From: Lishizhenia tianjinensis
GTDB taxonomy: Bacteria; Bacteroidota; Bacteroidia; Flavobacteriales_D; Crocinitomicaceae
Assembly: GCF_900116425.1 (NCBI RefSeq)
Contig: NZ_FPAS01000001.1
Span: forward strand, 978,767 to 1,042,766
Direction of reading: 5' to 3'
DNA length: 64,000 nucleotides
Made by a program: the position numbers and the translations under genes. Below are positions 22,621 to 49,377 of the stretch, piece after piece. Numbering within the stretch: the stretch's first letter is position 1; each line of letters begins with the position of its first letter. The notes under the pieces were generated by a model. The model was given only the letters and a program-made list of their open reading frames with translations. It ran no database searches and had not been told where the DNA came from.

Positions 22621-24252
22621 ATGAAAAACATTGTTAAACTACTATTTCTTAATTTACTTTTTTATCTACCGGCAAACCTATCCGCTCAAGAATTAAAAGA
22701 CAGTTTAGCTTATGAATACAATGTTGCCCTTTATGATGTAGGTGATTTGCGAACGGGTAACTTTATTGGACAAATTGGTGATTATTACTATGTGTATACC
22801 AGTAAGGACAGTTATCACAATCAACAAATGCGCCTAGAAAAATACAACATTAAAGGTGGAATAGAACGTAGTGTCTATATTCAACTGGAGGTAGAAAACT
22901 GTTATAAAAGACTCGAATATCAAGGTTATCGAAAATTTAAAGAGCCTCTAAGAGATCAATACAAGATTATAAACAATGAACTTTATCATTTCATTCCAGA
23001 TGAAGATATTCAAACTCATACAAGACGTGTATGGGTAGAAAAAATTGATTTAGAAACTCTTGAATCATTTGAACCACAACTCCTTTTCGAACACACTGTT
23101 GCAGAGGATGAATTTATGAAATACCGCAAAAGTCCTTTCTCCCTAGCTGTAATTCAAAGGAAGGAATTAAACTTTCTATACATTAAAAGTCAATATTCAA
23201 ATGAAAAAATTGATCTTATAAAAGTGGAAGATGGAATTTTCGAAGCGTTGAATTTAAATATCGAGAGCAAAGAAAATTTTCTAATGCAATTAGACCCTAA
23301 CAACATTGCTATTACCTCAAACAAACTGCGTGTACCCATATTTTACCTTCATCGTCAAAACGACATTTCTCATGTAGAACTACATACTACCGATTTAAAC
23401 TCAAAAATAGGCTCAAAACAAATCACGTTTAACAGTCTAAACTTTGCCCCCATACATCATTTTGATTACAGAGTGATATTTGAAGGAAACCTTATGAAAT
23501 TCATTTTCTTCTACAGACCAACAAATGATTTAACCAGAAACTTATATTCCATTTATGCTTATGATTTGACCACACAGGATATTTTTCATCATCAAGGACA
23601 AATTCCTGGTTTAAACAAAAAGACTTTTATGCATGAGTATGACCGAGATGTGATGTCTAAAAAATGGACTTATTTCACAGAAAATATGGACACCTCTTTC
23701 TTTGATCTACACTTTCGTGAAATTTTCCAATCTTCAGAGGGTAAGACTTACATTGTAGCATCCTATCAAATAAATAAACGTTTAGGAACGATAAATGGAC
23801 CCAACGCTTATTTTAATGATTATCGTTTTAGCAAAGATTTACCCGGAGATTTATTTGTTTTTGAACTCAATACAGATTTAAGCATTTCTTATTTGAATAC
23901 TATAGATATCTATAATTATCCTAATCCGGACAATTATGATTATTACGTCACTCACGGAGGAAATTACCCAAAATTGGATTACCCTCTACTAACATTTAAA
24001 AACAACAAAATATATTTTGTTCACAGCAATTACGAAGATCCAAACCATAGAGATATGGGACCACGACATATAGAAATCACGGCTCTTGATCTAGTGAACA
24101 ATAAAATTTCCAACCTTGGAAAAATAAGAGGCCATGAATTTCTAACCCAAAGTATTTACGCTAGAATTCCTTTTGACAAGGCGCATAATACTGGGTATAG
24201 GAGTAAAAATGGAGATAGATATATTTTACAATTGAATCTCAAAATTAAATAA
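22621..24252 (+). CDS. Secreted hypothetical protein, paralogue 4 (most diverged, 543 aa)
   Basis: Signal peptide 'MKNIVKLLFLNLLFYLPANLSAQ'. Same size class and position in the array. Tyr-rich. Confidence 0.5.
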   Translation: MKNIVKLLFLNLLFYLPANLSAQELKDSLAYEYNVALYDVGDLRTGNFIGQIGDYYYVYTSKDSYHNQQMRLEKYNIKGGIERSVYIQLEVENCYKRLEYQGYRKFKEPLRDQYKIINNELYHFIPDEDIQTHTRRVWVEKIDLETLESFEPQLLFEHTVAEDEFMKYRKSPFSLAVIQRKELNFLYIKSQYSNEKIDLIKVEDGIFEALNLNIESKENFLMQLDPNNIAITSNKLRVPIFYLHRQNDISHVELHTTDLNSKIGSKQITFNSLNFAPIHHFDYRVIFEGNLMKFIFFYRPTNDLTRNLYSIYAYDLTTQDIFHHQGQIPGLNKKTFMHEYDRDVMSKKWTYFTENMDTSFFDLHFREIFQSSEGKTYIVASYQINKRLGTINGPNAYFNDYRFSKDLPGDLFVFELNTDLSISYLNTIDIYNYPNPDNYDYYVTHGGNYPKLDYPLLTFKNNKIYFVHSNYEDPNHRDMGPRHIEITALDLVNNKISNLGKIRGHEFLTQSIYARIPFDKAHNTGYRSKNGDRYILQLNLKIK

Positions 24253-24515
24253 AAGAGCATGTTAATCAATTAAAAACAAGCAAAACGAAGTACGAATCTC
24301 AAAGCTTCTTACCAAATATTGAGAAGTTGAATTCACTACATTCCTTAATTATCCAGAAGCCACAAATTATTGACGGTACAGAATTAAAGTAAATCCTATT
24401 CTCAAAACCGCAAGCTCTCTATACTACTTAAATGAAGAACCTATTTTTTTAATAATTCAAAGATGATTTCACTACTGTAATACGCTATATTCACTATTCT
24501 AACTAGCTTAATTTG

Positions 24516-25901
24516 ATGAAGTATTTTTCTTTTATTCTGTTTTCCATATTATTTCTTATACCATTTGAATCTAGCGGCCAAAGCTATGAAGTGCTTGGCA
24601 CAAACATTACTATCCTGGAAAATGTAACGGAAGAAAAACCCATTGCGGTAATCGGTAACTATGAGTTTTTTCTTCAATCAGAAAAAAACTACAAACTCAA
24701 TATTCCTGTTGGTGAAATAAACTACATTCAAAAAAGATTAAATGGGAAAACCATAAATCAAATAAAAATTACCTATGCAAAGAATTCATCATTGAAGTTT
24801 GTTCAATTCAAAGATAAATTCGTGATCATTGAAGAGGACTTAAATCAATCTGAACATTTAAAAAGTATTTTAATAAGGGTATACGACCCTTTTTTACGAT
24901 GTATAAAGGAAAAGCGTCTGTTTAACGTACAAACCATGGATGAGCAATGTTTTACAGAAATTCAGTACCTCTATGATGATGAAAACCTATTTATAGTTGG
25001 AACATCCATCATAAATGAATCCAATACCCAAGTTGAAATACACCGTTTTGATTATACAGGTTTAGTAACAAAAATAGACCAATATATTGTTCCATTGGGT
25101 ATAGCCGATTTTAAAATTTACAAAGCAATTGTATATAAAAATGCCCTTAACCTATTAGAGCGAAGAACCGAAAACAATACAATTAATTTCAACTTAAAAA
25201 ATTACAATTTAACGACCTCTGAGAAAGTTGACTTTCCTTTAGATATGTTGAAATCACAGTATCATCTAGCTGAATTTGAAATTGAATTTAACAACGACAA
25301 GATATTATTATTTGGATTTACCTCTTTCCTTGTAGATTCTGAAAAACTGTTTGGTTCCATCATTCTTGAATACGACCTTAGCACTGGAATTCGAACGCGT
25401 TATGAAATCGAAAGTATTCCTAAAGCTCAAGGAAAAACATACGAACTCTGCAGCCTTTTAACAGCCATAAAATGTGGAAACGGTTCCATAATTCTCATTG
25501 GAGAATACAAAAAATTCGATTTTGAATACGACTATACTAATCAGAAGTTTGTAATCTGTGATCATAGTAACTTTATCATTCTTAAATTAAATACAGATCG
25601 CCAAATAGAAAGTATAAACATATTTGACCGTTTTGTAAGTGATGTTAATATTCCTTATTCAAATGTTTTATGCCATTTCAACAATGGAATATTGAATATA
25701 TTGTATTACAACAACTATGCTTTGGTCTTAAAAAAGGTTGATTTAAATAAAAATGAGGAAAACACAATAGAAATTTTCAAACGCGACTATGGAGACTTAC
25801 CTTTTTTCAATCTATCCAATTACGAAAGGCTAAATGAAACAACTTATATAATTAACGCTGGTATAAATACAATGCCCAGGAAGCTCAAAGTGGAATTTTA
25901 A
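24516..25901 (+). CDS. Secreted hypothetical protein, paralogue 5
   Basis: The ORF-track start at 24513 is TTG. The ATG gives 'MKYFSFILFSILFLIPFESSGQ'. 'INYIQKRLNGKTINQIKI' matches 'INKLVKKQNGKNVESIKL' of paralogue 3. Confidence 0.6.
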   Translation: MKYFSFILFSILFLIPFESSGQSYEVLGTNITILENVTEEKPIAVIGNYEFFLQSEKNYKLNIPVGEINYIQKRLNGKTINQIKITYAKNSSLKFVQFKDKFVIIEEDLNQSEHLKSILIRVYDPFLRCIKEKRLFNVQTMDEQCFTEIQYLYDDENLFIVGTSIINESNTQVEIHRFDYTGLVTKIDQYIVPLGIADFKIYKAIVYKNALNLLERRTENNTINFNLKNYNLTTSEKVDFPLDMLKSQYHLAEFEIEFNNDKILLFGFTSFLVDSEKLFGSIILEYDLSTGIRTRYEIESIPKAQGKTYELCSLLTAIKCGNGSIILIGEYKKFDFEYDYTNQKFVICDHSNFIILKLNTDRQIESINIFDRFVSDVNIPYSNVLCHFNNGILNILYYNNYALVLKKVDLNKNEENTIEIFKRDYGDLPFFNLSNYERLNETTYIINAGINTMPRKLKVEF

Positions 25902-25912
25902 AACTTAAAGAT

Positions 25913-25950
25913 AAAACGGGCCGATTCAATGTTGAATCGGCCCGTTTGTT
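25913..25950. terminator. Perfect-palindrome bidirectional terminator between paralogue 5 (+) and the giant ATPase gene (-)
   Basis: 'aaaacgggccgattcaatgttgaatcggcccgtttt' has A/T runs on both sides and is the same element as at 22473. Confidence 0.7.
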
Positions 25951-25965
25951 TTAAAAAGATATTAT

Positions 25966-28900
25966 TTACTCTTTATCCATGTGCTCCCTCAAGTTCTGGG
26001 CTATTCTGTCCATACCTTGGTGGAGGGTGTAAATAAAGCCATCCAAAGCTTCTGTTTTATCGGGGGCCAATGCCTTGAGGTTCTCGGCAATTTCTTGCAG
26101 TTGTACCATCATTTGTGCCGATGAATCATCCCCGTAACCTTTGGTCTTTTGTCGTTTTTGAAATTCTCGTACGATTTCCTCCCAACGCTCAGCTTCTTGC
26201 TCGTTTAACCATCCAAAAGTGGACTTAAACTTTAATAAGTTCGCTTCAGCATCTGCCGTTAAGGTTTGCGACTCATTTTCGTAGTGAGATTGTAACAAGG
26301 TCAACAACTCTTCCTCGTTCATAAGTGTGTTCAACTTCTCCACGATCTTGTTCATGTTACGGTAAGAACCTTGCAATTTAAAAGCGGGCTCCCTCCTATA
26401 CACCTCATCTTGATTGGCGGATTGTATGTAGAGTTCGTTCACTTTCATGACCACATCTCTTACCTTGATCATCTTCTCGAAAAGACTCACATTTTCTTCC
26501 ACGACTTGAGCAGAATATTGTCCTTTAAACTCCACCAATTCTTTATCCTTCCCTTCTGCCAAACTCACAAACTGTTTTACATCTTCGTAAACATTGTTTT
26601 TGATTTGGTTTAACAAAGGATGTGAACTTAAACTGTTTTCTATGAAACTCGATGCAAAGGCATTTCCATGTCCACCCACGATATCTCCCAAATTGTAAAT
26701 ATCTGCACGGTTGGCTAACATGTCTGGAATTTGGAATTTCCCTCCACTCTCTGTATAGGGGTTCCCGGCCATAATTACGGCTACCTTTTTCCCTCTAAAA
26801 TCATAGGTTTTGGGCTGACCTTCAAATACACCTTCTATCTTACGTTGTCCATCTGCTAAAGAAATAAACTTTTGTAAAAACACAGGACTACAATGTTGAA
26901 TATCATCCAAATAAATCATTACGTTATCTCCCATTTCAAAGGCCAAATTCAACTTTCTTAGCTCTTGAGCCGCAGCTGTAGAATCGGCTTGTTTTGGGTC
27001 TAAGCTTGTAACTTCATGACCAATAGATGGACCGTTGATCTTCATAAAAATCAAACCTAATCTGTTGGCGATGTATTCCATCAAAGTTGTTTTACCATAT
27101 CCTGGAGGAGAAACCAATAAAAGCATACCCATCAAATCCGTACGCTTGTTTGCCCCTACTGCTCCAATTTGCTTGGCAAGATTATCACCCACGATAGGCA
27201 AATACACTTCGTTAATCAATTGGTTACGCACAAAAGAATTCATCACTTTAGGCTCCAACTCATTTAAACGCAATTCCTTGGAATAGGTATCTACCAACTC
27301 TTTTTTACGGTGTTGTAAACTTTCAAAATCACGTTGGTAAACCGCTATAAAGTTTTCAATTTGTGGAAATAAATCGGCCAAATTCACTTGAGCCTTTCCT
27401 CCAACTATAGTAGAATGATCTCCTTTTAAACCATCTATTTCAATCGTTGGTACAGGAATAACATTTTCTTCTCCTATGTTTTTAGAAAGCATCAAGGAAC
27501 TCAACTCCGCGGCATGGTTATACCCCAGGTTTTCTAGCGCGTTTTGAAGCATCTGATAATAATGAAAGAGTTTATCTTGCTCTACATTATCCAATATCAA
27601 CGACTTCCTTTTCTTCACTAAATGACCGTAATCCTCATAAGCCTTAGAACTAATTACAAAGTGATCATCGTAGAGTAATTCTTGTGTCAGGTAAGCTGCA
27701 ACGTCTTTTGTTAAAGACAAGTATTTCTTAGGAAGGATGTCTGAAAGTAGAGCAAATAACTCATCTTCTACCTGCGTAAAAGTATGTGTATCCAAAACTT
27801 CATTCACCAAGCGATTCACTTGAATAAGGGCTTCCAACTCACCTTTGAAGTCAGCCTTCATACTCATCCAAGCCACACGCGCCAGAGCTCTAACCTCTTG
27901 GTTCACGAAAATGTTCGGATTCAATTCACCCTGCTTAATAAAGGCTTGCAAATACAACAAAGCATCAGCATCATGCACACCTTTGATGTAGTTTTCTTTG
28001 TAGCGGGGCGACATAAAGGTTCTCACTTTTTCAAGCAATTCCTCCTCTGTTAATTTCACCAATTCGGCCGTTCCAAAGTTTTTGAACATGAGATAAGCCA
28101 AGTATGCACCCCTGTAGACTTTATCATTTTCAGAAATAAGGGATGAATTCCATATGGCTTTGTGTCCGTTTAGAACCTCATCTTCTACCTCCTTAAAGAA
28201 ATTTGTACCTGTTATATGATAGAACATGGCCTCGCCCCTTTGTATAAGGGTTAAACCTAATTTCTGCTTATTCGTTAAGAATTGATGATTTCCAAATTGG
28301 ATTACATCATCTCCATTGGCAAAAAGTTCTTTTTTATCCTTTAATGATCTTAAGGCATTTTCCTTCAAAGACTTTAATTGAGCCGCAACATCATCGGCTT
28401 TTACTGTATCTCCGAGTTCAATTAAATCATCTACTGTATTTCTCACCTTCTCCACCATCAAATCTGAGGCATAGTAAGCTTGAATTTCGGCTTCTTCTTT
28501 AAAGGTTTTGAGTTTGTTCTCTACTGTTTTAAGAAGTCGTTTTGCACCTTCTTCCAGTTTTGTAGTTCTTCTCCCTCGTTGTTCTTGAAGATAGATTTTA
28601 CGGTTTTCAAAAGCTTCATAAATAGACTCACGCTTTTCCCCCACCTGATCTACAAATTCATCAAAATCTACAAATTTGCTCTCTAGTTCTTCTAATTGAA
28701 CCATGAGTTTATTCATGTATTCATCTGCTTTTTCTTCTGTAGAACTTAGGTCTAAGAAATTCACCACAGATTGAGAAATCAAAGTCAATTGCGCTGCAAA
28801 CTCTGCCTTTCCTTCTACTAAAAGCAATTCCTTTTTCTTGTTCTTTAAACTTGCCGAACAAGTATTGAACTTGGCATAAACAGCTGAAATTTGATCTATG

Positions 28901-30846
28901 ATTTGAGTTGATTTAGTAACATCCTCTATGCGAAGATTACCTACTATCTCTATCAACATTTCTAATTTCTTCGCCGTAGAAATGATTTTATCTTCTAAGT
29001 TCTTAGCGTCGAAACTTTTGGTTAAACCAGAAATTTCACCGTTGATTTCCTCTACTTTCTCCTCATACACATCCAAGGCTTCTGGACGAATTAAGAAGGA
29101 AATACAATTCTTAGATAATTCTTCTGTTTGCTGGGTGATATCTGCTTCTAGAGCCTCTATCTCTGCTAAGTTAGCATAACGTAAATCTTTTAAGGCTACA
29201 ACTTGACCTTTGATTCCGCGTAATTCGGCCAAATTATCTACATAAGAAGTAATGGTTTTCCCTCTAAAGTATTTGGAATTTTTAAGAATCTCCTGCGCCT
29301 TATGGGAAGTCTCCGCTATACTTTGAGCCGTTTGTTGCTTAATGCTTCTTACTTTCTCAAACTCATCTATAGCCTTAGAGGCTGTTTGACGAATTTGATC
29401 GATAGGTTCACCAATCTTGTGGGCTTCCTCGTGCATCAACCAATGTTGCGTATCTAAGATATCTTGTGTTTTTTTGGTGATATCCACATATAAACCGCCA
29501 AAGCTATCTTCCTTGTTCAAGAGTTTGATTAGCTCCTTACATTCGGCCATGGTACGAACAATGGTTTTGTTCCCTAGCTTGGCCAAGTAACTATCATTCC
29601 CAGTATTTTGCTGTACGTTAACATCTAAAAAGGGCGTTTGCCACACTTGTACACTGTGGTGTTTCTGTTGCTCCTCCTCTGCTCTAAAGTAAACAAGTTC
29701 TCCGTTTTCGAAAAGAGAGAAACCGTTACAGATGATAGGCGTTAACACACTCTGCGCAATCAAATTGTAAGAAAGTAAAATGTAAATTCCACTTTGTTGG
29801 TTGTAGAACACATACATAAAATCTTCTCCATTTGGTGAGTTTATTTTACGCTCAAACAACATCCCATCCAAAGGATTATCAAACAACTTGAATTCTCCCG
29901 TTTGCAAGTAATAGCCTTTCGGGAAAATGATACCATGATCATCTGGGAGAAGTACACAAGCATCTTCTATGGCATCTATGCGCACTACCTCTTGTATCTT
30001 CACGTTGTAGACCAAATACCTGTATTTCTCCTCCTTATAGGGTTTTATTTTCATCACCACAAGGTTTCCGATGACAGCGTATTGTAAATCTACATCATCC
30101 AAGGTTTGATCAGCTTGATCTACAGGTTCGGCATATATACCTTTCCCCGTGTCTGTATTATCTTCTACCTTAACGGTTAAATCACCTCCTGTTGTTTCTA
30201 CAAAGACCAAATCCTCTAAAGAAATATGACCGTGCGTACCTTTGCGCTGCATATCTCTTTTGGCTTTCTTCCACTTAAACTCGTAGCGGTTTGGAAATTT
30301 GTATTCACTATCCGATCGGTTACCATAATAGACCAAACAGTCTGGCGTTATCTTCCACTTAAAAGTTTTGATATCGCTAATGTTCTTCCCGGTTTGAAAC
30401 ACGAAGTAGAGAAAACCATTGATTTCTGCAAATTGAACAAAAGTGGTTTCCTTGTAGTATTTATATAAATTGGCAAAATCTTCGAAGAATTTTTCATCTT
30501 CTAAAAGTGCCAAAGTATCTCTTCTAAAGTTATGTTTTTCATCATCGAAATGATAAAAGGCAAAGACGTCTTCTATCTTTACTTCCTCGCGTAGACCTAT
30601 GTGTACATTGAAGCCGAAAAGCATGCGGTTTCCACCCAAACTAACCATATCTCTGGCGATACAATTGTTGTCTGTAGAAATTTTATCTGCAGAAAGCAGT
30701 TTATTTTCTATAGCTCCGAAAACTGCTTTTCTATCTGTATTTAAATGCTCTAGTCGTTGCGCCAACTCCTCCCCTTGCTTGTTTAATCGCGAGCGGATGA
30801 TTTCGTAGGTTCCACCGTCTAGATTGGTTTGTTCTTCATTGTTCAT
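25966..30846 (-). CDS. Giant (1626 aa) coiled-coil protein with a single C-proximal AAA+ ATPase domain of the AAA_5 / MoxR-dynein-like type
   Basis: ATG start. Walker A 'SPPGYGKTT' sits near aa 1245. Walker B is 'VMIYLDDIQ'. 'VAVIMAGNPYTESGGKFQIPDMLANRADIY' matches the AAA_5 sensor/Arg region. Roughly aa 480-1200 are predicted coiled-coil/helical. The N-terminal ~450 aa form a globular domain of unknown family. Confidence 0.7.
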   Translation of the reverse strand: MNNEEQTNLDGGTYEIIRSRLNKQGEELAQRLEHLNTDRKAVFGAIENKLLSADKISTDNNCIARDMVSLGGNRMLFGFNVHIGLREEVKIEDVFAFYHFDDEKHNFRRDTLALLEDEKFFEDFANLYKYYKETTFVQFAEINGFLYFVFQTGKNISDIKTFKWKITPDCLVYYGNRSDSEYKFPNRYEFKWKKAKRDMQRKGTHGHISLEDLVFVETTGGDLTVKVEDNTDTGKGIYAEPVDQADQTLDDVDLQYAVIGNLVVMKIKPYKEEKYRYLVYNVKIQEVVRIDAIEDACVLLPDDHGIIFPKGYYLQTGEFKLFDNPLDGMLFERKINSPNGEDFMYVFYNQQSGIYILLSYNLIAQSVLTPIICNGFSLFENGELVYFRAEEEQQKHHSVQVWQTPFLDVNVQQNTGNDSYLAKLGNKTIVRTMAECKELIKLLNKEDSFGGLYVDITKKTQDILDTQHWLMHEEAHKIGEPIDQIRQTASKAIDEFEKVRSIKQQTAQSIAETSHKAQEILKNSKYFRGKTITSYVDNLAELRGIKGQVVALKDLRYANLAEIEALEADITQQTEELSKNCISFLIRPEALDVYEEKVEEINGEISGLTKSFDAKNLEDKIISTAKKLEMLIEIVGNLRIEDVTKSTQIIDQISAVYAKFNTCSASLKNKKKELLLVEGKAEFAAQLTLISQSVVNFLDLSSTEEKADEYMNKLMVQLEELESKFVDFDEFVDQVGEKRESIYEAFENRKIYLQEQRGRRTTKLEEGAKRLLKTVENKLKTFKEEAEIQAYYASDLMVEKVRNTVDDLIELGDTVKADDVAAQLKSLKENALRSLKDKKELFANGDDVIQFGNHQFLTNKQKLGLTLIQRGEAMFYHITGTNFFKEVEDEVLNGHKAIWNSSLISENDKVYRGAYLAYLMFKNFGTAELVKLTEEELLEKVRTFMSPRYKENYIKGVHDADALLYLQAFIKQGELNPNIFVNQEVRALARVAWMSMKADFKGELEALIQVNRLVNEVLDTHTFTQVEDELFALLSDILPKKYLSLTKDVAAYLTQELLYDDHFVISSKAYEDYGHLVKKRKSLILDNVEQDKLFHYYQMLQNALENLGYNHAAELSSLMLSKNIGEENVIPVPTIEIDGLKGDHSTIVGGKAQVNLADLFPQIENFIAVYQRDFESLQHRKKELVDTYSKELRLNELEPKVMNSFVRNQLINEVYLPIVGDNLAKQIGAVGANKRTDLMGMLLLVSPPGYGKTTLMEYIANRLGLIFMKINGPSIGHEVTSLDPKQADSTAAAQELRKLNLAFEMGDNVMIYLDDIQHCSPVFLQKFISLADGQRKIEGVFEGQPKTYDFRGKKVAVIMAGNPYTESGGKFQIPDMLANRADIYNLGDIVGGHGNAFASSFIENSLSSHPLLNQIKNNVYEDVKQFVSLAEGKDKELVEFKGQYSAQVVEENVSLFEKMIKVRDVVMKVNELYIQSANQDEVYRREPAFKLQGSYRNMNKIVEKLNTLMNEEELLTLLQSHYENESQTLTADAEANLLKFKSTFGWLNEQEAERWEEIVREFQKRQKTKGYGDDSSAQMMVQLQEIAENLKALAPDKTEALDGFIYTLHQGMDRIAQNLREHMDKE

Positions 30847-30868
30847 TCAAATGAAAATTTAGGGTTAA

Positions 30869-30897
30869 AAAAGGGGAACGTATTTGCTCCCCTTTCC
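30869..30897 (-). terminator. Hairpin plus T-run between flotillin and the giant ATPase gene (internal attenuator/terminator on the minus strand)
   Basis: The minus strand reads 'ggaaaggggagcaaatacgttccccttttttaacc'. Confidence 0.5.
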
Positions 30898-30910
30898 ACA
30901 TAAACTAGAA

Positions 30911-33091
30911 CTAGTTAGGATTGAGCCCTAGGTGCTCTAGGGTACTTTCTCCTAACCCTAAGTTCTGCACCTTAGACATTAAATCTCTAAGCGCGCTTTT
31001 CTTAGTATCTCCATTTGTTTCTACCATCATTTTTGTCAACAAGGCAGTAATGGTAAGGTTTTTCGCATCTTCAGTAGTTAACCCAGAAGAGCTAATTAAG
31101 TTGCGGATCTTGTCCATTATCGTATCTCCTTCGAAGTCGTGAAAGAAGTTATCTTTAATTCCTTCCAACACTTCAGAATTCTCTATCAATCTATCCACAC
31201 GTTTCCCTGTAGTAATAGAACTTGTAATCTTGTCAAAGAAACTTTGGTCACCCCCAACGATATCAATCTTAGCATTCTTAAGTGCTTCACTCAATACGCT
31301 AGCTTGTGCCATGGCAATGTCTTTTTGAACGTCAATTTGCGCCATTTCAACTTGCTTGTCTTTGTCCAATTTCAGTTTGAATTCTTCGTGTTCTTTACCA
31401 ACCGTATCTAATTCTTTCATGGCTTCCGCTTTCTTCAAGATACCTTCAGCGTCTGCTGTGTATCTTTCACGCTCTACGGTAACTGCAGCCAATCCGTCTT
31501 TCTCTTTGGCAGTAGCTTGTTCTAACATCACTTGCGCTTCTGTCATACCACGCTCTCTATCCACTTCAACTCTAGCTTTACCAACTTTCAATTCAGCTTC
31601 AGCCGTTGCCAATCCTTTCGCTTCTATACCTTTTGCTTCCGCTAAAGATTGAACTTCTGTAACGTGTGCTTCTGCATCCCCTTGTTTTTCTCTGGCATCT
31701 GCTTTAGCCGACATTACTTGCGCCTCAGCCAAACCAGTAGAAGCAAATTCAGAAGCTTTGGCATCTGCCATTATCTTAATTGCCTCGGCTTTTTGTGCCG
31801 CACTCTGTTGTTCTGCTTCCGCTTCAATCAACATGCGTTTTGCGTTGAATTCTGCAGCTTGTTTTGCAGCCTCAGCAGCTTTGATACGTTGCACTAAGTT
31901 TTCCTCTGCAGCTTGTTCAGCAGCCGTAACCGCCACACGTTTGTTTCTATCCGCTTCAGCAAGTGCTTGGGTATCTTTGATTTTTTCTTCTTCTTCAACA
32001 ACCGTTTTCTGAATGGCTACTCTATCACGTATAACCTCTTGGATGTTTTTCTTTTCTTCTTCGATAGATTTTTCTTTTTCTATCTGTGCCAAAGTAACCA
32101 CGCGTTCTCTTTCGTTCGCTTCTAAAGCTCTGTCTTTTTCTACACGCTCCGTTTCTATGGCTTCTGTACGTTCTTTGTTCTTCGCGGCAACAATTACCTG
32201 ACGTAACTTGTTTTCTTCTGCCACTTGAATTTCTTCTTCTGCGGCAATACGCGCAAATTCAGATTTCTTGTGTTCTTCAGAACGCACCTTATCAATTTCA
32301 GCTTGTTCACGGGCACGAATAGTAGACACCTCTTTACGCTGAGATTCTTCTTTCTCGGCTAATTGTCTTTCCAATTCTAAAATTGCTTCACGTGCCTCAA
32401 CATCTTGTTGTTTGATTACCTTTTGTTCTTCACGCATGATCTTGTTAGCCTTGATCTTTTGCGCTGCAGTTAAATCTGTAATCTTCTTGATACCTTCTGC
32501 ATCCAAAATGTTCTTTTCATCGAGGTGTGTTACCGGTGTTTGCTCCAGGTAATCAATCGCTGTATCTTCTAAGGTATATCCATTTAAGTCTTGCTTAATT
32601 GCTGCTGCAATCTCTAACCTGAATTCATCACGCTTCTCGTATAATTCAACGAAATCAAACTTCTTACCTACCGTTTTTAAGGCATCAGAGAATTTAGCAT
32701 CGAATAATTGAATTAACGTTTCTGGGTGAGAAGCTCTTTTACAACCTATAGACTGCGCTACTTCTCTTACTTTTTCTTCATCTCCGTTTACTTTAAGGAA
32801 GAAGGTTACTTTTATATCTGCACGTAAGTTATCCTTACATACCAAACCTTCTTTACCTTGTCGAGCAATTACGATACTTTTCACAGAGATGTCCATGATC
32901 TCCAAGCTGTGCAATACAGGGATAACAAACATACCGGTTTTAGAGACTCTTACACCTCCACCAGTTCTTACAAGTACTTGACCTTGTTGTGGTTTTTTAT
33001 ACCACTTTGCGAGCATAACGAGGATGCCCAGGAAGATAACAGCTGCAATAATGGCAACCACCATCCCTTGTTCTAGGATACTAATTAACAT
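30911..33091 (-). CDS. Flotillin-like SPFH/band-7 protein (YqiK type) with an extended C-terminal coiled-coil
   Basis: N-terminal TM 'MVVAIIAAVIFLGILVMLAKWY'. The SPFH core is 'GQVLVRTGGGVRVSKTGMFVIPVLHSLEIMDIS'. Long EA/AE-rich heptad repeats bring it to 726 aa. Confidence 0.8.
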   Translation of the reverse strand: MLISILEQGMVVAIIAAVIFLGILVMLAKWYKKPQQGQVLVRTGGGVRVSKTGMFVIPVLHSLEIMDISVKSIVIARQGKEGLVCKDNLRADIKVTFFLKVNGDEEKVREVAQSIGCKRASHPETLIQLFDAKFSDALKTVGKKFDFVELYEKRDEFRLEIAAAIKQDLNGYTLEDTAIDYLEQTPVTHLDEKNILDAEGIKKITDLTAAQKIKANKIMREEQKVIKQQDVEAREAILELERQLAEKEESQRKEVSTIRAREQAEIDKVRSEEHKKSEFARIAAEEEIQVAEENKLRQVIVAAKNKERTEAIETERVEKDRALEANERERVVTLAQIEKEKSIEEEKKNIQEVIRDRVAIQKTVVEEEEKIKDTQALAEADRNKRVAVTAAEQAAEENLVQRIKAAEAAKQAAEFNAKRMLIEAEAEQQSAAQKAEAIKIMADAKASEFASTGLAEAQVMSAKADAREKQGDAEAHVTEVQSLAEAKGIEAKGLATAEAELKVGKARVEVDRERGMTEAQVMLEQATAKEKDGLAAVTVERERYTADAEGILKKAEAMKELDTVGKEHEEFKLKLDKDKQVEMAQIDVQKDIAMAQASVLSEALKNAKIDIVGGDQSFFDKITSSITTGKRVDRLIENSEVLEGIKDNFFHDFEGDTIMDKIRNLISSSGLTTEDAKNLTITALLTKMMVETNGDTKKSALRDLMSKVQNLGLGESTLEHLGLNPN

Positions 33092-33113
33092 AAGTTTTTA
33101 ATTAAAGCTAATA

Positions 33114-33773
33114 TTAGGCATTAGCATAGGGTTCTACTAAATATGTGTTTTGATCTTTATTGAAGGAAATAACAAGGATGCTATCTCCTTTGATAAGCGA
33201 AGATCCACGCTTAGTTTCTATATAAATGGTATGTACATTCTGGTTGTTTTCTACTTTGGCCTGACCGTGTTTTCCTTCAGTATCTATCAAGGTTACTTTT
33301 CCTACAGAACCCGTTAAGTCTTTCGACATAGATTCTTTCTCCAAAGAGGCGAACATCTTTACAAAAGGAAAAGTTAGAAATTTGGCAAGGATGGCACAAC
33401 CAATAATACAAGGTATAAGGGTAAGCAATCCAAACAGAAAGCTTTCTATACCAAAAATCTCATTAACGCTTACTTGAACAAACCACAGACTTAAGGTAAA
33501 GAAACTAAACCATAACATGAGAGGTACTCTTCCTATATTTAGGAAACGAAGGATGAACATAAGCCAAGACAAATCTCCTGAAGAAGCCACACCTGTTTCG
33601 GCGTCTACCTCAATTTCAACATCTGCATCCATGTCTATTTCAACATCAACATCTAGGAAGTTTAAATCGAGTACACCCATGATAACGGTGATCCAATAGA
33701 GCACGACGAGTACGAGGAGGAAACTAGCAAAGAAGTTTGCTCCATTAAACGACATGTTTAATAATTCAAGCAT
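33114..33773 (-). CDS. NfeD-like membrane protein (YqiJ type; C-terminal OB-fold)
   Basis: Multi-TM N-terminus with an acidic loop 'DVDVEIDMDADVEIEVDAE'. C-terminus 'GKVTLIDTEGKHGQAKVENNQNVHTIYIETKRGSSLIKGDSILVISF' is a NfeD-type beta-barrel. A 22-bp gap separates it from flotillin. Confidence 0.7.
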   Translation of the reverse strand: MLELLNMSFNGANFFASFLLVLVVLYWITVIMGVLDLNFLDVDVEIDMDADVEIEVDAETGVASSGDLSWLMFILRFLNIGRVPLMLWFSFFTLSLWFVQVSVNEIFGIESFLFGLLTLIPCIIGCAILAKFLTFPFVKMFASLEKESMSKDLTGSVGKVTLIDTEGKHGQAKVENNQNVHTIYIETKRGSSLIKGDSILVISFNKDQNTYLVEPYANA

Positions 33774-33861
33774 TTTATGGTTTTACAGTTAGTAATTTAT
33801 CCAGTGGTTCAGTGAGTAATAGTAGAAAGGTAAGGGAGGATATTTCACCTCCCTTGAAGGA

Positions 33862-34566
33862 TTACATTCCCATTTTTTTCTTCAAAGCTTCTAAAGACTC
33901 AGAGGCTTTACTTTCATTTGCTCCTTCATCGATAGCTTTGTCTAATTCTTCATCGATAGATCTACTTTCGTTGGCAATATCAGCATAAGATTCAGCCAAA
34001 GCTTCTTCTTGCGCTACCTTTTCCTTCATTCTTTCTAACATAGAAACTGTAGAAGAAGAATCGATGTTTGCCAATTGTTTGTTGATGTTTTTCGTTGCGC
34101 TACTCACCTTCGCTCTCGCTTTCAAGGTTTTCAACTCGTTCTCGTATTTTGCAATACTAGATCTCAAACTCTTTACATTTCCATCTAACTTAGAAACGTG
34201 TGCTTCAAACTTCTCTCTATCTGTTTTTGACTGATTCGCCAACTTCATAGTTTCTTCCTTACGAACCAAAGCTTCACTTGCCAATCTATCTGCTTCTGCA
34301 GCATCCATAGAACCAGCTTTCGCTTTTTGAAGAATCAACATGGCTTTCTTTTCGTAGTCTTCCGCTTTTTGTACTTGCGTCTCAGCATCATTCTTTGCTC
34401 TAATAGAAAGTGCTTTCACTTCTGCTAAAGCTTGTAATGCTTTTTCCAAATCTTTTTTCAAGTCTCTAATCCCCTGCTCTGTCATTTTGATTGGGTCTTC
34501 TAAACTATCTATTGCTGAATGCGCCTCAGCTTTACCTATATTAAATAATCTCTTAAAAATGTTCAT
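33862..34566 (-). CDS. pspA: PspA/IM30 (Vipp1/LiaH) family protein
   Basis: 'MNIFKRLFNIGKAEAHSAIDSLEDPIKMTEQGIRDLKKDLEKALQALAEVKA' is the canonical PspA N-terminus. All-helical, 234 aa. Confidence 0.85.
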   Translation of the reverse strand: MNIFKRLFNIGKAEAHSAIDSLEDPIKMTEQGIRDLKKDLEKALQALAEVKALSIRAKNDAETQVQKAEDYEKKAMLILQKAKAGSMDAAEADRLASEALVRKEETMKLANQSKTDREKFEAHVSKLDGNVKSLRSSIAKYENELKTLKARAKVSSATKNINKQLANIDSSSTVSMLERMKEKVAQEEALAESYADIANESRSIDEELDKAIDEGANESKASESLEALKKKMGM

Positions 34567-34578
34567 TTTTTCTGTGTA

Positions 34579-34974
34579 TTAATGTTTTGAAAATTCTATA
34601 ATTTCATCTGAGTACTCACTCAGTAATAAGGAAAGTGCGTTGATTGATCCTTCTAATTCATTCAAATCTAAATTTTCTAATTGAAGGGTATCTCTAAACA
34701 AAACTCGCTTTCCATCTTCTGCTAAAACAAAAGCTCCATGTACAATATCTCTGTTCTTGATCAACAATTTCTTGAATACGTCCGTGTCTCCATTTGGTAT
34801 CTCGAAAATGTATTGTTCCATGATTAAAATTGGGTCGGCACAACCGATTACAAGATTCTTTATTCCGTCGATTTCGCTTTCTATGACGAAAACTTCATCT
34901 TCTTTATCTTCTTTTACAATCATGTAATCCAATTCTTGCAAATAGGCTCTCACCTTTTCATAGTCCTTTGCCAT
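34579..34974 (-). CDS. YbjN-like domain protein (T3SS-chaperone-like fold; putative sensory transduction regulator family)
   Basis: 131 aa. 'VRAYLQELDYMIVKEDKEDEVFVIESEIDGIKNLVIGCADPILIMEQYIFEIP' fits the YbjN pattern. First gene of the minus-strand operon, 12 bp from pspA. Confidence 0.5.
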   Translation of the reverse strand: MAKDYEKVRAYLQELDYMIVKEDKEDEVFVIESEIDGIKNLVIGCADPILIMEQYIFEIPNGDTDVFKKLLIKNRDIVHGAFVLAEDGKRVLFRDTLQLENLDLNELEGSINALSLLLSEYSDEIIEFSKH

Positions 34975-35172
34975 TGTATAGTGTTTAAGTTTATGTGTTA
35001 TAAAAATAGAAATTAATCCATGTTATCGCGTTTTTCTGAAAGAAACACTAAGGCCCAGGACCATTTTCTACCGTAATACTTTGTATATTCATGATAATAT
35101 TTTTAGATTCACGAAGTAAATATACTAATATTTTTTACAATTGCTAAAATTATTAGCTAATTTTTCAAGATT

Positions 35173-35814
35173 ATGATTTCAAAGATTGGAAAAAACATCA
35201 AAAAGATACGTAAGGTTAAAAACTTAAACCAGCAAGCAATGGCAGATTTACTGGGGCTTTCACGTCCTTCTATTGGTGCTTATGAAGAAATGCGTGCTGA
35301 ACCAAAAATTGAATCTCTAATAAAATTAGCAAATCACTTCAAATTAGATTTGGGTCGATTAATCAATGAAGACCTAACAGTAAATGAAATTCACGGATTT
35401 AAACAAGCCGAGGAACTTGTTTTGGACAACAAGCCTATAAAATCTCCGGCAAAACCAAAGACTTTTCCTTATTTGATCTTGAAGAACAACAAACTAAGTC
35501 TGCAAAAGGTAGAATTAACTTGGCCTTTAGCCACCAATAAAAAAGTTCTGGGTGTGCAAGAAACAGCCCAACTCTGCAGTATTTATAAGGAAGTAAACGC
35601 AGGGAATTTCAATCCTAAAGAAAGTTGCCTTGTTCAAAAAGGTAAAGAATTCCATTATAACGTAAAACTGGTAGAGAAGGAAAATGAACTTTACTTTAAA
35701 GAAGAATTAGTGGATGGAAACAAGGTGATCGCTTTTCAAATTTTAGAAACGCAACACAATGTGGATGAAAGATTGAAACGCTTGGAAAGTATACTTTCTA
35801 AATTAAGTCTATAA
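35173..35814 (+). CDS. XRE-family HTH transcriptional regulator with an uncharacterised C-terminal domain
   Basis: 'IKKIRKVKNLNQQAMADLLGLSRPSIGAYEEMRAEPKIESLIKLANHFKL' is a Cro/C1-type HTH. Divergent from the pspA operon. Confidence 0.7.
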   Translation: MISKIGKNIKKIRKVKNLNQQAMADLLGLSRPSIGAYEEMRAEPKIESLIKLANHFKLDLGRLINEDLTVNEIHGFKQAEELVLDNKPIKSPAKPKTFPYLILKNNKLSLQKVELTWPLATNKKVLGVQETAQLCSIYKEVNAGNFNPKESCLVQKGKEFHYNVKLVEKENELYFKEELVDGNKVIAFQILETQHNVDERLKRLESILSKLSL

Positions 35815-35816
35815 AA

Positions 35817-35845
35817 AAAGGGGAGCTAAACACTCCCCTCTTTAT
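35817..35845. terminator. Bidirectional hairpin terminator
   Basis: 'aaaggggagctaaacactcccctcttt' lies between the convergent genes. Confidence 0.6.
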
Positions 35846-35861
35846 ATCTCTCCGTAATTTC

Positions 35862-36110
35862 TTACATCAACTTTGTAGCTAAAGCTTCAACTTTATCAGA
35901 AATCTCAGCTCTGATTTGTTTGAACTCAGCTTTTGTTGAAGAAGCGTTGATTTTAGCGATCATTTCATTTCTGAAATCTACAGCTTCATCAATAATTTCG
36001 TTCGTCTTTTCAGTTTTAGACTCATCCCATAATTGTTGACTAAATCCTTCTTCTACTATATCAAAGATTGCGTAATTGAAATCTCTTTTTAGGTTCTTAA
36101 CACTTGCCAT
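35862..36110 (-). CDS. Small helical hypothetical protein (82 aa)
   Basis: The internal ATG 'MASVKNLKRDF' is preferred. The ORF-track N-terminal extension to 36224 translates AT-rich promoter-like sequence. Confidence 0.4.
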   Translation of the reverse strand: MASVKNLKRDFNYAIFDIVEEGFSQQLWDESKTEKTNEIIDEAVDFRNEMIAKINASSTKAEFKQIRAEISDKVEALATKLM

Positions 36111-36266
36111 AATTAAAATATTTTGCACAAAAGTAAGTATTCTAGTTGTGTCTATAGATATACTTGAAGAGAAAAACCCTTTCAAAAATGTCGTGTTCAA
36201 ATCTTTCCTTTTAAAAAACAGCATTACAGACTTCTAAATAAGGAGAGTTCATTAATTTTGCGCCAC

Positions 36267-37637
36267 ATGAAATTTGCCATTACAGATCTAGAAACAACTG
36301 GCGGTAGTCCGAAAAAATCGAAGATTACCGAAATTGCTATCTATAAATGTGATGGTGATAAAATCATTGATGAATACACCACTTTGGTTAACCCCGAAAT
36401 GCCCATTCCAAAGTTCATTACCCAATTAACGGGTATTAATGATGAAATGGTAGAAAACGCACCCAGGTTTTATGAAATAGCTAAGGACATTATCGAATTC
36501 TTAGAAGATTGTGTATTTGTAGCCCATAATGTTGGATTTGACTATGGTGTTTTACGGGGTGAATACAAATCTTTAGGCTATGATTTTCGTTACCCACACA
36601 TGTGTACAGTAAGAGCTTCTCGCATTTTATTGCCTGGACATGATTCTTACAGTTTGGGTAAACTTACCAATGATTTAGGCATAGAACTGGTGGGCAGACA
36701 CAGAGCTGCAGGGGATGCCATGGCTACAGTCGAATTGTTTAAAATTCTTTACGCCAAAGACAGCAATGAACTCAACACTTTCATTACCTCTGAGATAAAT
36801 CCTACTGTACTCCACCCAAATTTAGATTTGAGTCATTTGGAAGATATCCCTAACAAAACAGGGGTATATAGATTCTACGATGACACCAACCGTTTGATCT
36901 ATATAGGGAAAAGTAAACACATCCTTACCCGCATCAAGCAGCATTTGAAGAACAGTAAAACCAAACGTGCCATAGAAATGCGTGAAAATATTGCGCGCAT
37001 AGAATACGAATTGACGGGGTCTGAAATGATTTCCTTACTGTATGAATCTGCCTTAATAAAACAATACAAACCCATCTACAACCGAGCATTGAGAAGATCC
37101 AATTTTTCTCATGGCCTATTTTCGTATACAGACAATGCGGGTTACATCAACTTGTACGTCGATACTTTAAATAAAAATACAGATCCACCGATTACAACTT
37201 TTACTTCGAGAGCAGATAGTAAAAAGTTTTTGGAAGACATAGCTAGCAAGCATGTGTTATGTCAAAAACTACTCGGTATTTACCCTACCCAACACGCTTG
37301 TTTTAGCTACCACACCAAACAGTGTTTTGGCGCTTGTATACAAAAAGAACCCACTTTAACCTACAACGCCAGAGTGAATAGCTTTATAGACTCTATGGCC
37401 TTTGACAATGAAAACTTCTTCATCATAGAAAAGGGAAGAAAAAAGGGAGAAAACAGTATAGTACTGATAGAAAATGGCATTTACATAGGTTATGGATACC
37501 TACCTTTCTTTCACATGAGTAAAGGAATAGAAGTGTGGAAAGAGGCCATCGAACGCCAGCACGAAGACAGAGATGCTCGAACGATAATTCGTTATTATTT
37601 ACGCAAGAATAAGGATTTGAATATTAGACAGTTTTAA
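36267..37637 (+). CDS. DnaQ-like 3'-5' exonuclease (Pol III epsilon family) fused to a GIY-YIG nuclease domain
   Basis: Exo I 'FAITDLETTG', Exo II 'FVAHNVGFDYGVL' and Exo III 'HRAAGDAMAT' are present. 'GVYRFYDDTNRLIYIGKSKHILTRIKQH' is GIY-YIG. The ORF-track start at 36258 is TTG, so the ATG at 36267 is used. Confidence 0.8.
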   Translation: MKFAITDLETTGGSPKKSKITEIAIYKCDGDKIIDEYTTLVNPEMPIPKFITQLTGINDEMVENAPRFYEIAKDIIEFLEDCVFVAHNVGFDYGVLRGEYKSLGYDFRYPHMCTVRASRILLPGHDSYSLGKLTNDLGIELVGRHRAAGDAMATVELFKILYAKDSNELNTFITSEINPTVLHPNLDLSHLEDIPNKTGVYRFYDDTNRLIYIGKSKHILTRIKQHLKNSKTKRAIEMRENIARIEYELTGSEMISLLYESALIKQYKPIYNRALRRSNFSHGLFSYTDNAGYINLYVDTLNKNTDPPITTFTSRADSKKFLEDIASKHVLCQKLLGIYPTQHACFSYHTKQCFGACIQKEPTLTYNARVNSFIDSMAFDNENFFIIEKGRKKGENSIVLIENGIYIGYGYLPFFHMSKGIEVWKEAIERQHEDRDARTIIRYYLRKNKDLNIRQF

Positions 37638-48288: not shown

Positions 48289-49377
48289 TTAATATTGAAG
48301 ACATGAGGCAATACCCGAGGTGTAGGCACGCTCTAATAAACCTTCTTCATTTTGAAATAGTAAATAAACTTCTAGGTTCAATTCTGGGTGGTTGGCAACA
48401 AACTCCATGGTTGCATCTTTCCCCATAACCATAAAGGCAGTAGCATAGGCATCCGCGCTTGCGCAGTCATCAGCCATAACCGTTGCACTTAATAAATTGT
48501 GTTTTACAGAATACCCCGTTTTTGGGTCTATCGTATGTGAATATTTACGCCCATCCACCACATAATATTTCCTGTAATTACCAGAGGTAGCCAAAGCTTT
48601 ATTATCAACCGCTATGGCATTTTCCAAGCTGCGTTTATTTAATCCATCATTATTTTCTAGCGGAACATCTATACCTATAAACCAAGGTTTACCTTCGTTG
48701 TTTACTCCTTTTGTTTTAAGTTCTCCTCCTATTTCAATAAAGTAATTGGTTTGACCTTTGGCATCTAAGAAATCGGCCACCACATCTACTGAATAGCCTT
48801 GTGCAATTGCATTGAAGTCAAAACAAAAACGCGTATCTTTTTTCAACAAACTATCTCCCGTAAAACGATACAGTTTATTCGGTTCAAAAGAAATGAATTG
48901 TAAACAACTGTCCACTTCTTGTTGACTCAAAACTAAATTCGAATCCTTGAAAAACCCCCAAGCTTTTACCATTGGAAAAACCGAAGGGTCGAAAGCACCA
49001 TTCGTGGTTTTAAACACCTCCAGGCTCTTATTAAAACAATGTGTAAAGTAGGCATTTTCGGGTATCTTCATTCCCTTTGATGAAGCATTCACTTTAGATA
49101 TTAAAGATTCTTCCATGTAGCCTGAAAGCTCCGCATCAAAACCTGTAAAAAGACTTTCAATTTCATAGGTTGATAAAAGCAGACTATCATCACTGGTTTT
49201 AATTTGAAAGGTTGAACCTTGCGTATACCCTTGAATTTCTTGTATACTAACCTGCGTAGAAAAGGAATTGTCTTTCGTATTCAATATTGACTTCTCTTCC
49301 TTGGATGAGGAAGAACAAGATGATACTAGAACTAGCGCGAAAGCCAGTATACTAGAAGTGTTTAACCAGTTTACCAT
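48289..49377 (-). CDS. ApbE-family FAD:protein FMN transferase (lipoprotein)
   Basis: Lipobox 'LVSSCSS'. 'NGAFDPSV', 'AQGYSVDVVADFL', 'FIEIGGEL' and 'ATSGNYRKYYVVDGRKYSHTIDPKTG' are ApbE blocks. Confidence 0.75.
   Translation of the reverse strand: MVNWLNTSSILAFALVLVSSCSSSSKEEKSILNTKDNSFSTQVSIQEIQGYTQGSTFQIKTSDDSLLLSTYEIESLFTGFDAELSGYMEESLISKVNASSKGMKIPENAYFTHCFNKSLEVFKTTNGAFDPSVFPMVKAWGFFKDSNLVLSQQEVDSCLQFISFEPNKLYRFTGDSLLKKDTRFCFDFNAIAQGYSVDVVADFLDAKGQTNYFIEIGGELKTKGVNNEGKPWFIGIDVPLENNDGLNKRSLENAIAVDNKALATSGNYRKYYVVDGRKYSHTIDPKTGYSVKHNLLSATVMADDCASADAYATAFMVMGKDATMEFVANHPELNLEVYLLFQNEEGLLERAYTSGIASCLQY

Follow-up and report, generated by a model that had tools for sequence, protein, structure and literature searches.

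A 64,000-nt stretch of the Lishizhenia tianjinensis genome (Crocinitomicaceae, Bacteroidota), hereafter the window, carries an operon that encodes a YqiJ-like membrane protein, a flotillin and a giant ATPase together with PspA and a CesT/Tir-like protein, and that is transcribed divergently from a helix-turn-helix (HTH) regulator gene. The operon is real and well conserved, and it is a member of a class that has been described computationally. We consider that its products would form a repressor-controlled, ATP-driven flotillin/PspA module for membrane maintenance and remodelling, and we give this functional reading, drawn from the comparisons below, a probability of roughly 55%.

The listing of open reading frames (ORFs) places five genes on the minus strand and one divergent gene on the plus strand, in agreement to the base with a preliminary description of this DNA. 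All coordinates are positions in the window, and protein lengths are in amino acids (aa).

25966-30846, minus strand: giant ATPase gene, 1626 aa (Pfam, AlphaFold models)
30911-33091, minus strand: YqiK-type flotillin gene, 726 aa (hhalign to E. coli YqiK)
33114-33773, minus strand: YqiJ/YuaF-like membrane protein gene, 219 aa (BLASTP to E. coli YqiJ)
33862-34566, minus strand: PspA/IM30 family gene, YjfJ-like and full length, 234 aa (Pfam)
34579-34974, minus strand: CesT/Tir-like chaperone-fold gene, 131 aa (PF22550)
35173-35814, plus strand: divergent regulator gene, 213 aa (WP_090246939.1; HTH_3)

The tight spacing claimed for the five genes was reproduced, with intergenic gaps of 64 bp (giant/flotillin), 22 bp (flotillin/YqiJ-like), 88 bp (YqiJ-like/PspA) and 12 bp (PspA/CesT-like). 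The divergent region between the cesT-like gene and the regulator gene is 198 bp long.

Conservation of the operon and its membrane-associated products

Gene order was surveyed in 80 loci, one genome per species, and two exact look-ups, with the window proteins as tblastn queries; L-numbers below are the locus labels of this survey. The flotillin gene lies directly upstream of the giant gene on the same strand in 64 of the 67 loci with at least 3 kb of upstream sequence, and a YqiJ-like gene is found upstream of flotillin in 56 of these 64. The flotillin-giant adjacency spans Bacteroidota, Planctomycetota, Verrucomicrobiota/Kiritimatiellota, Desulfobacterota, Clostridia and Omnitrophota. In the exceptions L045, L052 and L056, a giant homologue is present and flotillin was undetected within 7-10 kb upstream. 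As a full set, the CesT-like gene, pspA and the divergent regulator gene were found in 22 of 31 Bacteroidota loci but never in the 31 loci of other phyla. Thus, the core of the unit consists of the YqiJ-like protein, flotillin and the giant, and the PspA dyad and the regulator are a Bacteroidota extension. The preliminary description had regarded the genes as a unit with its own divergent regulator, and had noted that the adjacency would be incidental if homologues of the giant lacked synteny with flotillin and PspA; the same order was seen in dozens of genomes, and the counts above contradict an incidental adjacency.

Additional genes are present in the cassette elsewhere, including a gene for a PH_40-domain protein between flotillin and the giant in Pontibacter (L002, 9147-9875) and a YbjQ_1 protein gene after PspA in Aquimarina (L086, 8219-8533). 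ORFs inserted between flotillin and the giant were considered as a conserved component and rejected, since these variable small ORFs share no family.

The 131-aa protein matches CesT_Tir_1 over its full length (PF22550, Pfam E 4.7e-56). It had been described as YbjN-like, but the YbjN match is weak and secondary (Pfam E 1.2e-3). Its gene stands immediately beside pspA, separated by the 12-bp gap, and this adjacency was found in 22 loci; the CesT-like protein and PspA form a dyad. The 234-aa protein was correctly recognised as PspA/IM30: the PspA_IM30 match (PF04012) covers residues 2-230 with an E-value of 5.5e-45 and a score of 154 bits, against a curated cut-off of 33.9, and the protein is 28% identical to E. 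coli YjfJ over the full length (E 4e-12).

The 219-aa protein aligns to E. coli YqiJ (BLASTP E 8e-6), and hydrophobicity analysis gives three hydrophobic segments followed by a beta-rich C-terminal domain. Although its Pfam YqiJ_N match (E 1.4e-3) is under the Pfam cut-off, these features bear out the earlier assignment to the YqiJ-type NfeD proteins, and from its sequence the protein is the predicted NfeD-like partner of flotillin, a YqiJ/YuaF-like anchor with three transmembrane (TM) segments.

The flotillin identity of the 726-aa protein, also proposed before, comes from profile-profile comparison with YqiK, because searches with sequence models found nothing: there is no Pfam Band_7 or Flotillin match even at E<=10 and no match in NCBIfam or to a PDB sequence, and a profile search of the PDB yields QmcA only (E 0.62). 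A 13-sequence profile of the family aligned to E. coli YqiK with an hhalign probability of 99.95 and an E-value of 1.9e-37, and the alignment of 395 columns runs from the TM helix through the SPFH domain into the coiled coil (residues 10-421). The hydrophobic segment at residues 1-32 is a single N-terminal TM helix; behind it come the SPFH-like domain and then a coiled coil that is long and rich in Ala, Glu and Lys. Homologues are named 'flotillin family protein' or YqiK by several sources. A long ORF at 31139-32201 on the plus strand lies antisense to the flotillin gene, as do ORFs of up to 700-720 aa in L038, L047, L066 and L078; these antisense ORFs probably result, as an artefact, from the way an Ala/Glu/Lys-rich coiled coil is encoded.

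The arrangement had been called an undescribed system and not a canonical operon. This claim fails because of a prior catalogue (mSystems 2024; preprint 2020), which describes in silico an operon class of CesT/Tir-PspA, YqiJ/YuaF, band-7/flotillin and AAA+ genes (PMC11237479). Its Table S3 gives for Dokdonia a layout of the same six genes, the divergent '<-CHTH+Protease' gene among them, and in Dokdonia donghaensis (IS97_2772, ANH61663.1) the kinds of genes and their order agree with those of the window. The AAA+ protein of that class has an N-terminal beta-propeller and a coiled coil, and the models of the giant predict likewise. The catalogue also reports abbreviated flotillin-YqiJ(-AAA+) operons without PspA in other lineages, a form reproduced by our synteny survey. 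The Lishizhenia regulator differs in being a shortened copy, in which the HTH is present and the orientation is divergent while the S24-like part is undetected. Band-7, FloT, NfeD and HTH genes adjoining pspA have been reported as well (PMC9239133).

The flotillin and the three-TM protein have direct homologues in E. coli, YqiK and YqiJ, and YjfJ is a homologous PspA that is paired with a CesT/Tir-superfamily protein, YjfI (PMC11237479). However, yqiJ-yqiK and yjfI-yjfJ are unlinked there, no giant ATPase is listed beside either, and the Lishizhenia CesT-like protein belongs to a different family from YjfI, with no similarity. In the B. subtilis pspA-ydjGHI (samGHI) operon, PspA is likewise encoded with a membrane-linking SPFH/flotillin protein (PMC8581546; bioRxiv 10.64898/2026.02.06.704340), and it requires the SPFH protein YdjI for membrane localisation (PMC8581546). 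That operon differs in having no AAA+ partner, other accessory proteins and other regulation.

A giant ATPase with a propeller, a helical region and a MoxR-like module

A protein 100% identical to the giant is present in Lishizhenia tianjinensis, and the family has at least 3949 homologues at E<=1e-10, with about 50% identity between phyla. Three regions were located in its gene.

29443-30768, minus strand: DUF3686, residues 27-468 (Pfam E 5.5e-182), a WD40-like beta-propeller
28828-29082, minus strand: DUF7902, residues 589-673 (Pfam E 1.2e-23), inside the long helical region
26677-27129, minus strand: AAA+ alpha/beta core, residues ~1240-1390 (alignment of 12 sequences)

A search with the DUF3686 N-terminal region returned 704 cluster representatives at E<=1e-3, and the full-length proteins among the 150 listed representatives are mostly 1600-2000 aa. 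The preliminary description had suggested structure prediction for the N-terminal region; in the models this part consists of an N-terminal helix, a beta-propeller and helices. Two AlphaFold models with predicted local distance difference test (pLDDT) values of 82 and 80 give the order N-terminal helix, beta-propeller (strands 49-403), about 420 residues of long helices (420-840), helical/beta domains and, C-terminal in the giant, the AAA+ module, which has a beta-hairpin between Walker B and sensor 1. In Foldseek searches, the propeller region matches the WD40-type propellers of Sec12, Ski8, EED and Ycf48.

The giant contains one AAA domain, at residues 1242-1365 (PF00004, E 2e-7; AAA_5, E 2.5e-6, above cut-off). 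By fold, the module most resembles the MoxR ATPases CbbQ and NorQ, not the classical AAA clade: CbbQ and NorQ have the top target-normalised TM-scores in Foldseek, and Clp, Lon and RuvB-type ATPases have similar E-values (~1e-5). The MoxR-type fold matches make the earlier label of a single 'MoxR/dynein-type' AAA_5 domain a reasonable one, as judged from the models. Among 12 aligned sequences, the Walker A motif P1247-P1248-G-Y-G-K1252-T-T, N1362 (sensor 1) and R1380 are invariant, and the Walker-B position is an invariant D1314-D1315, that is, DD and not DE. Characterised MoxR ATPases pair with VWA-domain partners, as in NorQ-NorD and CbbQ-CbbO. No VWA domain was found in the operon proteins by Pfam or in the annotated neighbourhoods, and the giant further differs from CbbQ, NorQ and RavA in its ~1200 extra N-terminal residues (propeller and helices) and in the DD at the Walker-B position.

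Pfam detected no protease or MIT domain in the giant, and Pfam and fold searches detected no DNA-binding or nuclease domain. NCBI names the family 'DNA repair ATPase', echoing the Pfam description of DUF3686. We found no literature, domain or neighbourhood support for this name, and our literature search returned no papers for DUF3686 or for 'DNA repair ATPase' with flotillin. The name, which is carried by several thousand homologues, appears unfounded.

A LexA-like regulator, its operators and transcript structures

The divergent gene had been labelled an XRE regulator. Its HTH is confirmed (HTH_3/HTH_19, Pfam E ~2e-11), but the label is incomplete, since the S24 matches, an alignment and the catalytic positions identify a degenerate LexA/CI-type repressor. 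Pfam sees only the HTH in the window copy, which at 213 aa is shortened, as is the 117-aa Crocinitomix copy; the orthologues have 225-298 aa. The orthologues carry HTH_3 with Peptidase_S24, the latter detected in 11 of 14 at E<=1 (best 5.3e-10) and undetected in the window copy. A CI-type HTH is followed by a C-terminal region that is S24-like but eroded, and by a terminal helix.

Operon-linked regulators were aligned with the LexA sequences of Supplementary Data S5 of PMC8565304. The C-terminal domains are homologous to those of true LexA, with common LPxFxLP, RAFE and EIWEAK-type motifs and the terminal helix. True non-canonical LexA proteins carry KASAGY, GDSM and FKR, whereas in the operon-linked proteins the Ala-Gly is missing, Glu stands in place of Ser and Arg in place of Lys. 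Among 161 regulator orthologues, Gly is replaced by Asp/Glu in 152, Ser by Glu in 153 and Lys by Arg in 155, and none keeps all three determinants. From these substitutions, the regulator is a predicted non-cleavable paralogue of the non-canonical LexA family of Bacteroidetes. It shares with that family the CI-type HTH, the terminal helix and the same box in its own promoter, and its orthologues, though not detectably the window copy, also share the S24-like domain. It differs in the replacement of Ala-Gly, of the Ser nucleophile and of the Lys base, in its link to a membrane operon and not to SOS genes, and, in the window copy, in the loss of most of the S24-like core. A role as a genuine SOS LexA was rejected, all cleavage determinants being replaced.

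A Bacteroidetes LexA of the non-canonical family, which combines a CI-type HTH with S24, binds CTAA-N5-TTAG in electrophoretic mobility shift assays (PMC8565304). This palindrome is found in the divergent promoter region of the window, together with a candidate promoter directed toward the operon.

35143-35157, no strand: perfect operator palindrome GCTAA-AATTA-TTAGC (GCTAAAATTATTAGC), 16 nt upstream of the regulator ATG
35117-35124, minus strand: candidate Bacteroidetes -7 box TATATTTA toward the operon, proposed from sequence
35317-35329, no strand: second exact CTAA-N5-TTAG site, inside the regulator coding sequence (codons 49-53)

The operator at 35143-35157 overlaps the -33 region of the candidate promoter. 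The Bacteroidetes -7 promoter consensus is TAnnTTTG, and 9 of 23 loci have an exact match in the corresponding position, compared with a shuffle mean of 1.9. Operator statistics were obtained by comparing the 23 regulator-cesT intergenic regions with the remainder of the loci. With at most one mismatch, GCTAA-N5-TTAGC occurs at 5.15/kb in the intergenic regions and at 0.125/kb in the rest, and the 31 observed sites compare with 0.5±0.7 in shuffled intergenic sequences; the exact CTAA-N5-TTAG occurs at 2.99/kb and 0.015/kb, respectively. The enrichment in the divergent promoter region is thus ~40- to 200-fold. The sites are mostly paired, with start-to-start distances of ~18 nt in Cytophagales-type loci and ~42 nt in Flavobacteriaceae, and the pairs flank or overlap the operon-directed TAnnTTTG box.

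In the Hymenobacter loci (L020, L021), the palindrome is CTCA-N5-TGAG, with a matched change in both half-sites, and the half-sites of L009 (Sphingobacteriales) are CCAA-N5-TTGG. These divergent half-sites may serve as insulation from SOS cross-talk, because true LexA in both lineages reportedly uses CTAA-N5-TTAG. Sites also occur inside the regulator ORF, at 0.87/kb across the 23 loci compared with the 0.015/kb background and ~145-176 nt from the ORF start (L012, L023, L032, L037, L042, L046, L049, L068, L070, L072 and L075). In Flavobacteriaceae, the intra-ORF site encodes IAN(Y/H/F)FSI, and in the window it lies in SLIKLAN, with other codons and in another frame. The intra-ORF site could be an auxiliary looping operator or a by-product of coding.

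Published data connect to these regulators. The orthologue P0267, WP_066317457.1 of Aquimarina sp. AD10, is listed among LexA homologues (PMC8565304, Table S9), and its gene is divergent from CesT_Tir_1-PspA-...-DUF3686 genes. The sites given for a Tenacibaculum HTH gene in the same paper (e.g. CTAATTTTATTTG) match the Tenacibaculum locus of our survey. Many Flavobacteriaceae own a CTAA-group homologue while a GGA-N5-TCC regulator runs the SOS regulon (PMC8565304); we infer that the additional CTAA-group protein corresponds, at least in part, to the repressor of the operon. The main text of PMC8565304 mentions neither PspA, flotillin, the divergent operon nor naturally non-cleavable members, and that of PMC11237479 neither discusses the regulator nor links it to the LexA-like family or the CTAA-N5-TTAG box. 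As far as the literature shows, the connection of the operon's regulator and operator with the LexA-like family is unreported in PMC11237479 and in the main text of PMC8565304.

Two inverted repeats accompany the operon genes.

30868-30897, minus strand: stem-loop followed by a U-run in the flotillin/giant gap, resembling a terminator or attenuator
25914-25947, no strand: inverted repeat with a 15-bp stem and 8 G-C pairs, just past the giant stop codon and between convergent genes (terminator scan)

The hairpin noted previously between the flotillin and giant genes is supported by folding, with -17.2 kcal/mol, a z-score of -3.65 and 0 of 200 shuffles as stable, and it is followed by the U-run. 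Equally placed hairpins in many other loci, from several phyla, are stable too but unrelated in sequence, which suggests attenuation of giant expression more than a hard operon boundary. The repeat at 25914-25947 is likely the operon terminator. An Rfam scan of 25800-36400 gave no match at E<=0.1, and in the ~135-nt leader of cesT neither unusual structure (z -1.56) nor a meaningful small ORF was found.

Outside the operon, a fusion gene of a DEDDh exonuclease and a GIY-YIG domain was located near the regulator gene.

36258-37637, plus strand: DEDDh exonuclease and GIY-YIG fusion gene (RNase_T E 2.9e-35; GIY-YIG E 3.9e-10; PADLOC PDC-S48 E 6.9e-43)

This nuclease gene lies two genes from the pseudo-LexA gene, and the adjacency recurs only in Crocinitomix (L065). 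It was considered as a member of the operon unit and rejected, given its recurrence in one close relative only and the lack of an operator upstream. On the other side of the operon, two large convergent ORFs on the plus strand, at 22621-24252 (543 aa) and 24513-25901 (462 aa), have no Pfam, NCBIfam or PADLOC match. Farther away, a 1968-aa ORF (49352-55258, minus strand) lies within a stretch of very strong AT skew (-0.35) and GC skew (-0.2).

Proposed mechanism, alternatives and implications

In the proposed membrane-remodelling module, flotillin and the YqiJ-like protein would build a membrane-attached SPFH scaffold, and PspA would polymerise on damaged membrane, its CesT-like partner either keeping it competent for assembly or targeting it. 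The giant may oligomerise via its AAA+ ring and use ATP to assemble, remodel or dismantle scaffolds or clients, with the propeller gripping targets and the helical region transmitting force. It would be an analogue, not a homologue, of Vps4 acting on ESCRT-III or of FtsH inside HflK/C. A dimer of the regulator would bind the operators and repress both its own gene and the operon, and since the regulator is predicted to be unable to cleave itself, release would depend on a signal other than RecA-stimulated autoproteolysis. Owing to the junction hairpin, the giant is probably expressed at a lower level than the structural genes. By analogy, cooperation of SPFH proteins with PspA and with AAA+ proteins has precedents (PMC8581546, PMC13220708, PMC11222466): FtsH works with HflK/C and is enclosed by it (PMC13220708), and S. 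aureus FloA-NfeD holds and stabilises unfolded proteins in membrane microdomains (PMC11222466). HflK/C-FtsH and ESCRT-III-Vps4 likewise combine an SPFH cage or an ESCRT-III-type polymer with an AAA+ machine, a likeness of function; unlike FtsH and Vps4, the giant has no protease or MIT domain and has a pre-sensor-1 hairpin and a MoxR-like fold. The same functional reading has been proposed in silico (PMC11237479).

Several observations weigh against this proposal. Since the Walker B motif is an invariant Asp-Asp, hydrolysis may be slow or the ring may be a switch, and the MoxR-like giant has no VWA-domain partner. Repression, as opposed to activation, is suggested by the operator position alone, and oligomerisation of the window regulator is less certain because most of its S24-like domain is lost. 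The junction hairpin may be a full terminator, with the giant gene having its own promoter. In the literature, we found no experimental study of any member of the operon.

The same scaffold and ATPase may instead serve client-directed quality control, in which the scaffold corrals damaged or unfolded membrane proteins, the giant extracts, unfolds or re-inserts these clients and does not remodel the scaffolds, and PspA only seals the leaky membrane. The holding of unfolded proteins by FloA-NfeD (PMC11222466) and the enclosure of an AAA+ protease by HflK/C (PMC13220708) fit such a role, as do the Foldseek matches to Clp, Lon and RuvB-type ATPases at E ~1e-5. However, the giant has no protease domain, its best structural matches are MoxR-type rings, and visual inspection of the conserved stretch following Walker A shows no aromatic pore-loop motif. 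A further point against quality control is that MoxR rings work on particular partners and do not thread substrates in general; we regard it as an unlikely function. Still less probable is that the operon belongs to the Bacteroidetes LexA regulon, with the giant in the damage response and the membrane proteins serving, for example, division arrest or vesiculation after damage. The operators match the SOS box CTAA-N5-TTAG, the regulator is of the LexA-like family with one orthologue in Table S9 of PMC8565304, the Pfam and NCBI names invoke DNA repair, and the family of the neighbouring DEDDh/GIY-YIG nuclease is predicted to be SOS-regulated (PMC8565304). Yet none of the determinants of RecA-stimulated self-cleavage is kept in the linked regulator, neither a DNA-binding nor a nuclease domain was detected in the giant, and the invariant partners of the giant are membrane proteins, also in phyla without this regulator. 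In addition, the 'DNA repair' name has no literature support, and the nuclease recurs beside the operon in L065 only, with no CTAA-N5-TTAG site upstream.

The preliminary description had also raised a membrane-associated defence module, and anti-phage defence or abortive infection would accommodate a large ATPase, an HTH regulator resembling phage CI and the generic PADLOC regulator-model matches of the HTH domain. The five operon proteins, however, are at noise level in PADLOC-DB 2.0 (TRIP13, E 0.006; LmuB, E 0.0014), which amounts to no real match, and effector domains, nucleases included, are absent from the operon. Whereas defence islands usually evolve fast and are patchily distributed, the operon family shows ~50% identity across phyla, fixed synteny and chromosomal housekeeping neighbours, and we consider a defence function very improbable, the least likely of the readings weighed here.

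The implications concern both membrane maintenance and SOS biology. To our knowledge, no Vps4-like partner is known that would take apart or power bacterial PspA/IM30 polymers or flotillin scaffolds. Because its gene neighbours a flotillin gene in six phyla and pspA in Bacteroidota, the giant is the obvious candidate for such a factor. A more far-reaching picture, which we put forward tentatively and hold to be doubtful, is that a naturally non-cleavable pseudo-LexA using the SOS-type CTAA-N5-TTAG box gates a machine of flotillin and PspA, a protein of the ESCRT-III fold, powered by the giant propeller-stalk-MoxR ATPase. In some species, true LexA reading the same box would bring the operon under the joint control of DNA damage and a membrane signal and couple SOS to ATP-driven remodelling, and the giant would be the long-missing energy-consuming remodeller. 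The regulator and the CTAA-N5-TTAG palindrome supply a defined operator-repressor pair for experiments. Part of the 'LexA paralogues' counted in Bacteroidetes would be self-cleavage-dead repressors of this membrane operon, which affects reconstructions of the SOS regulon.

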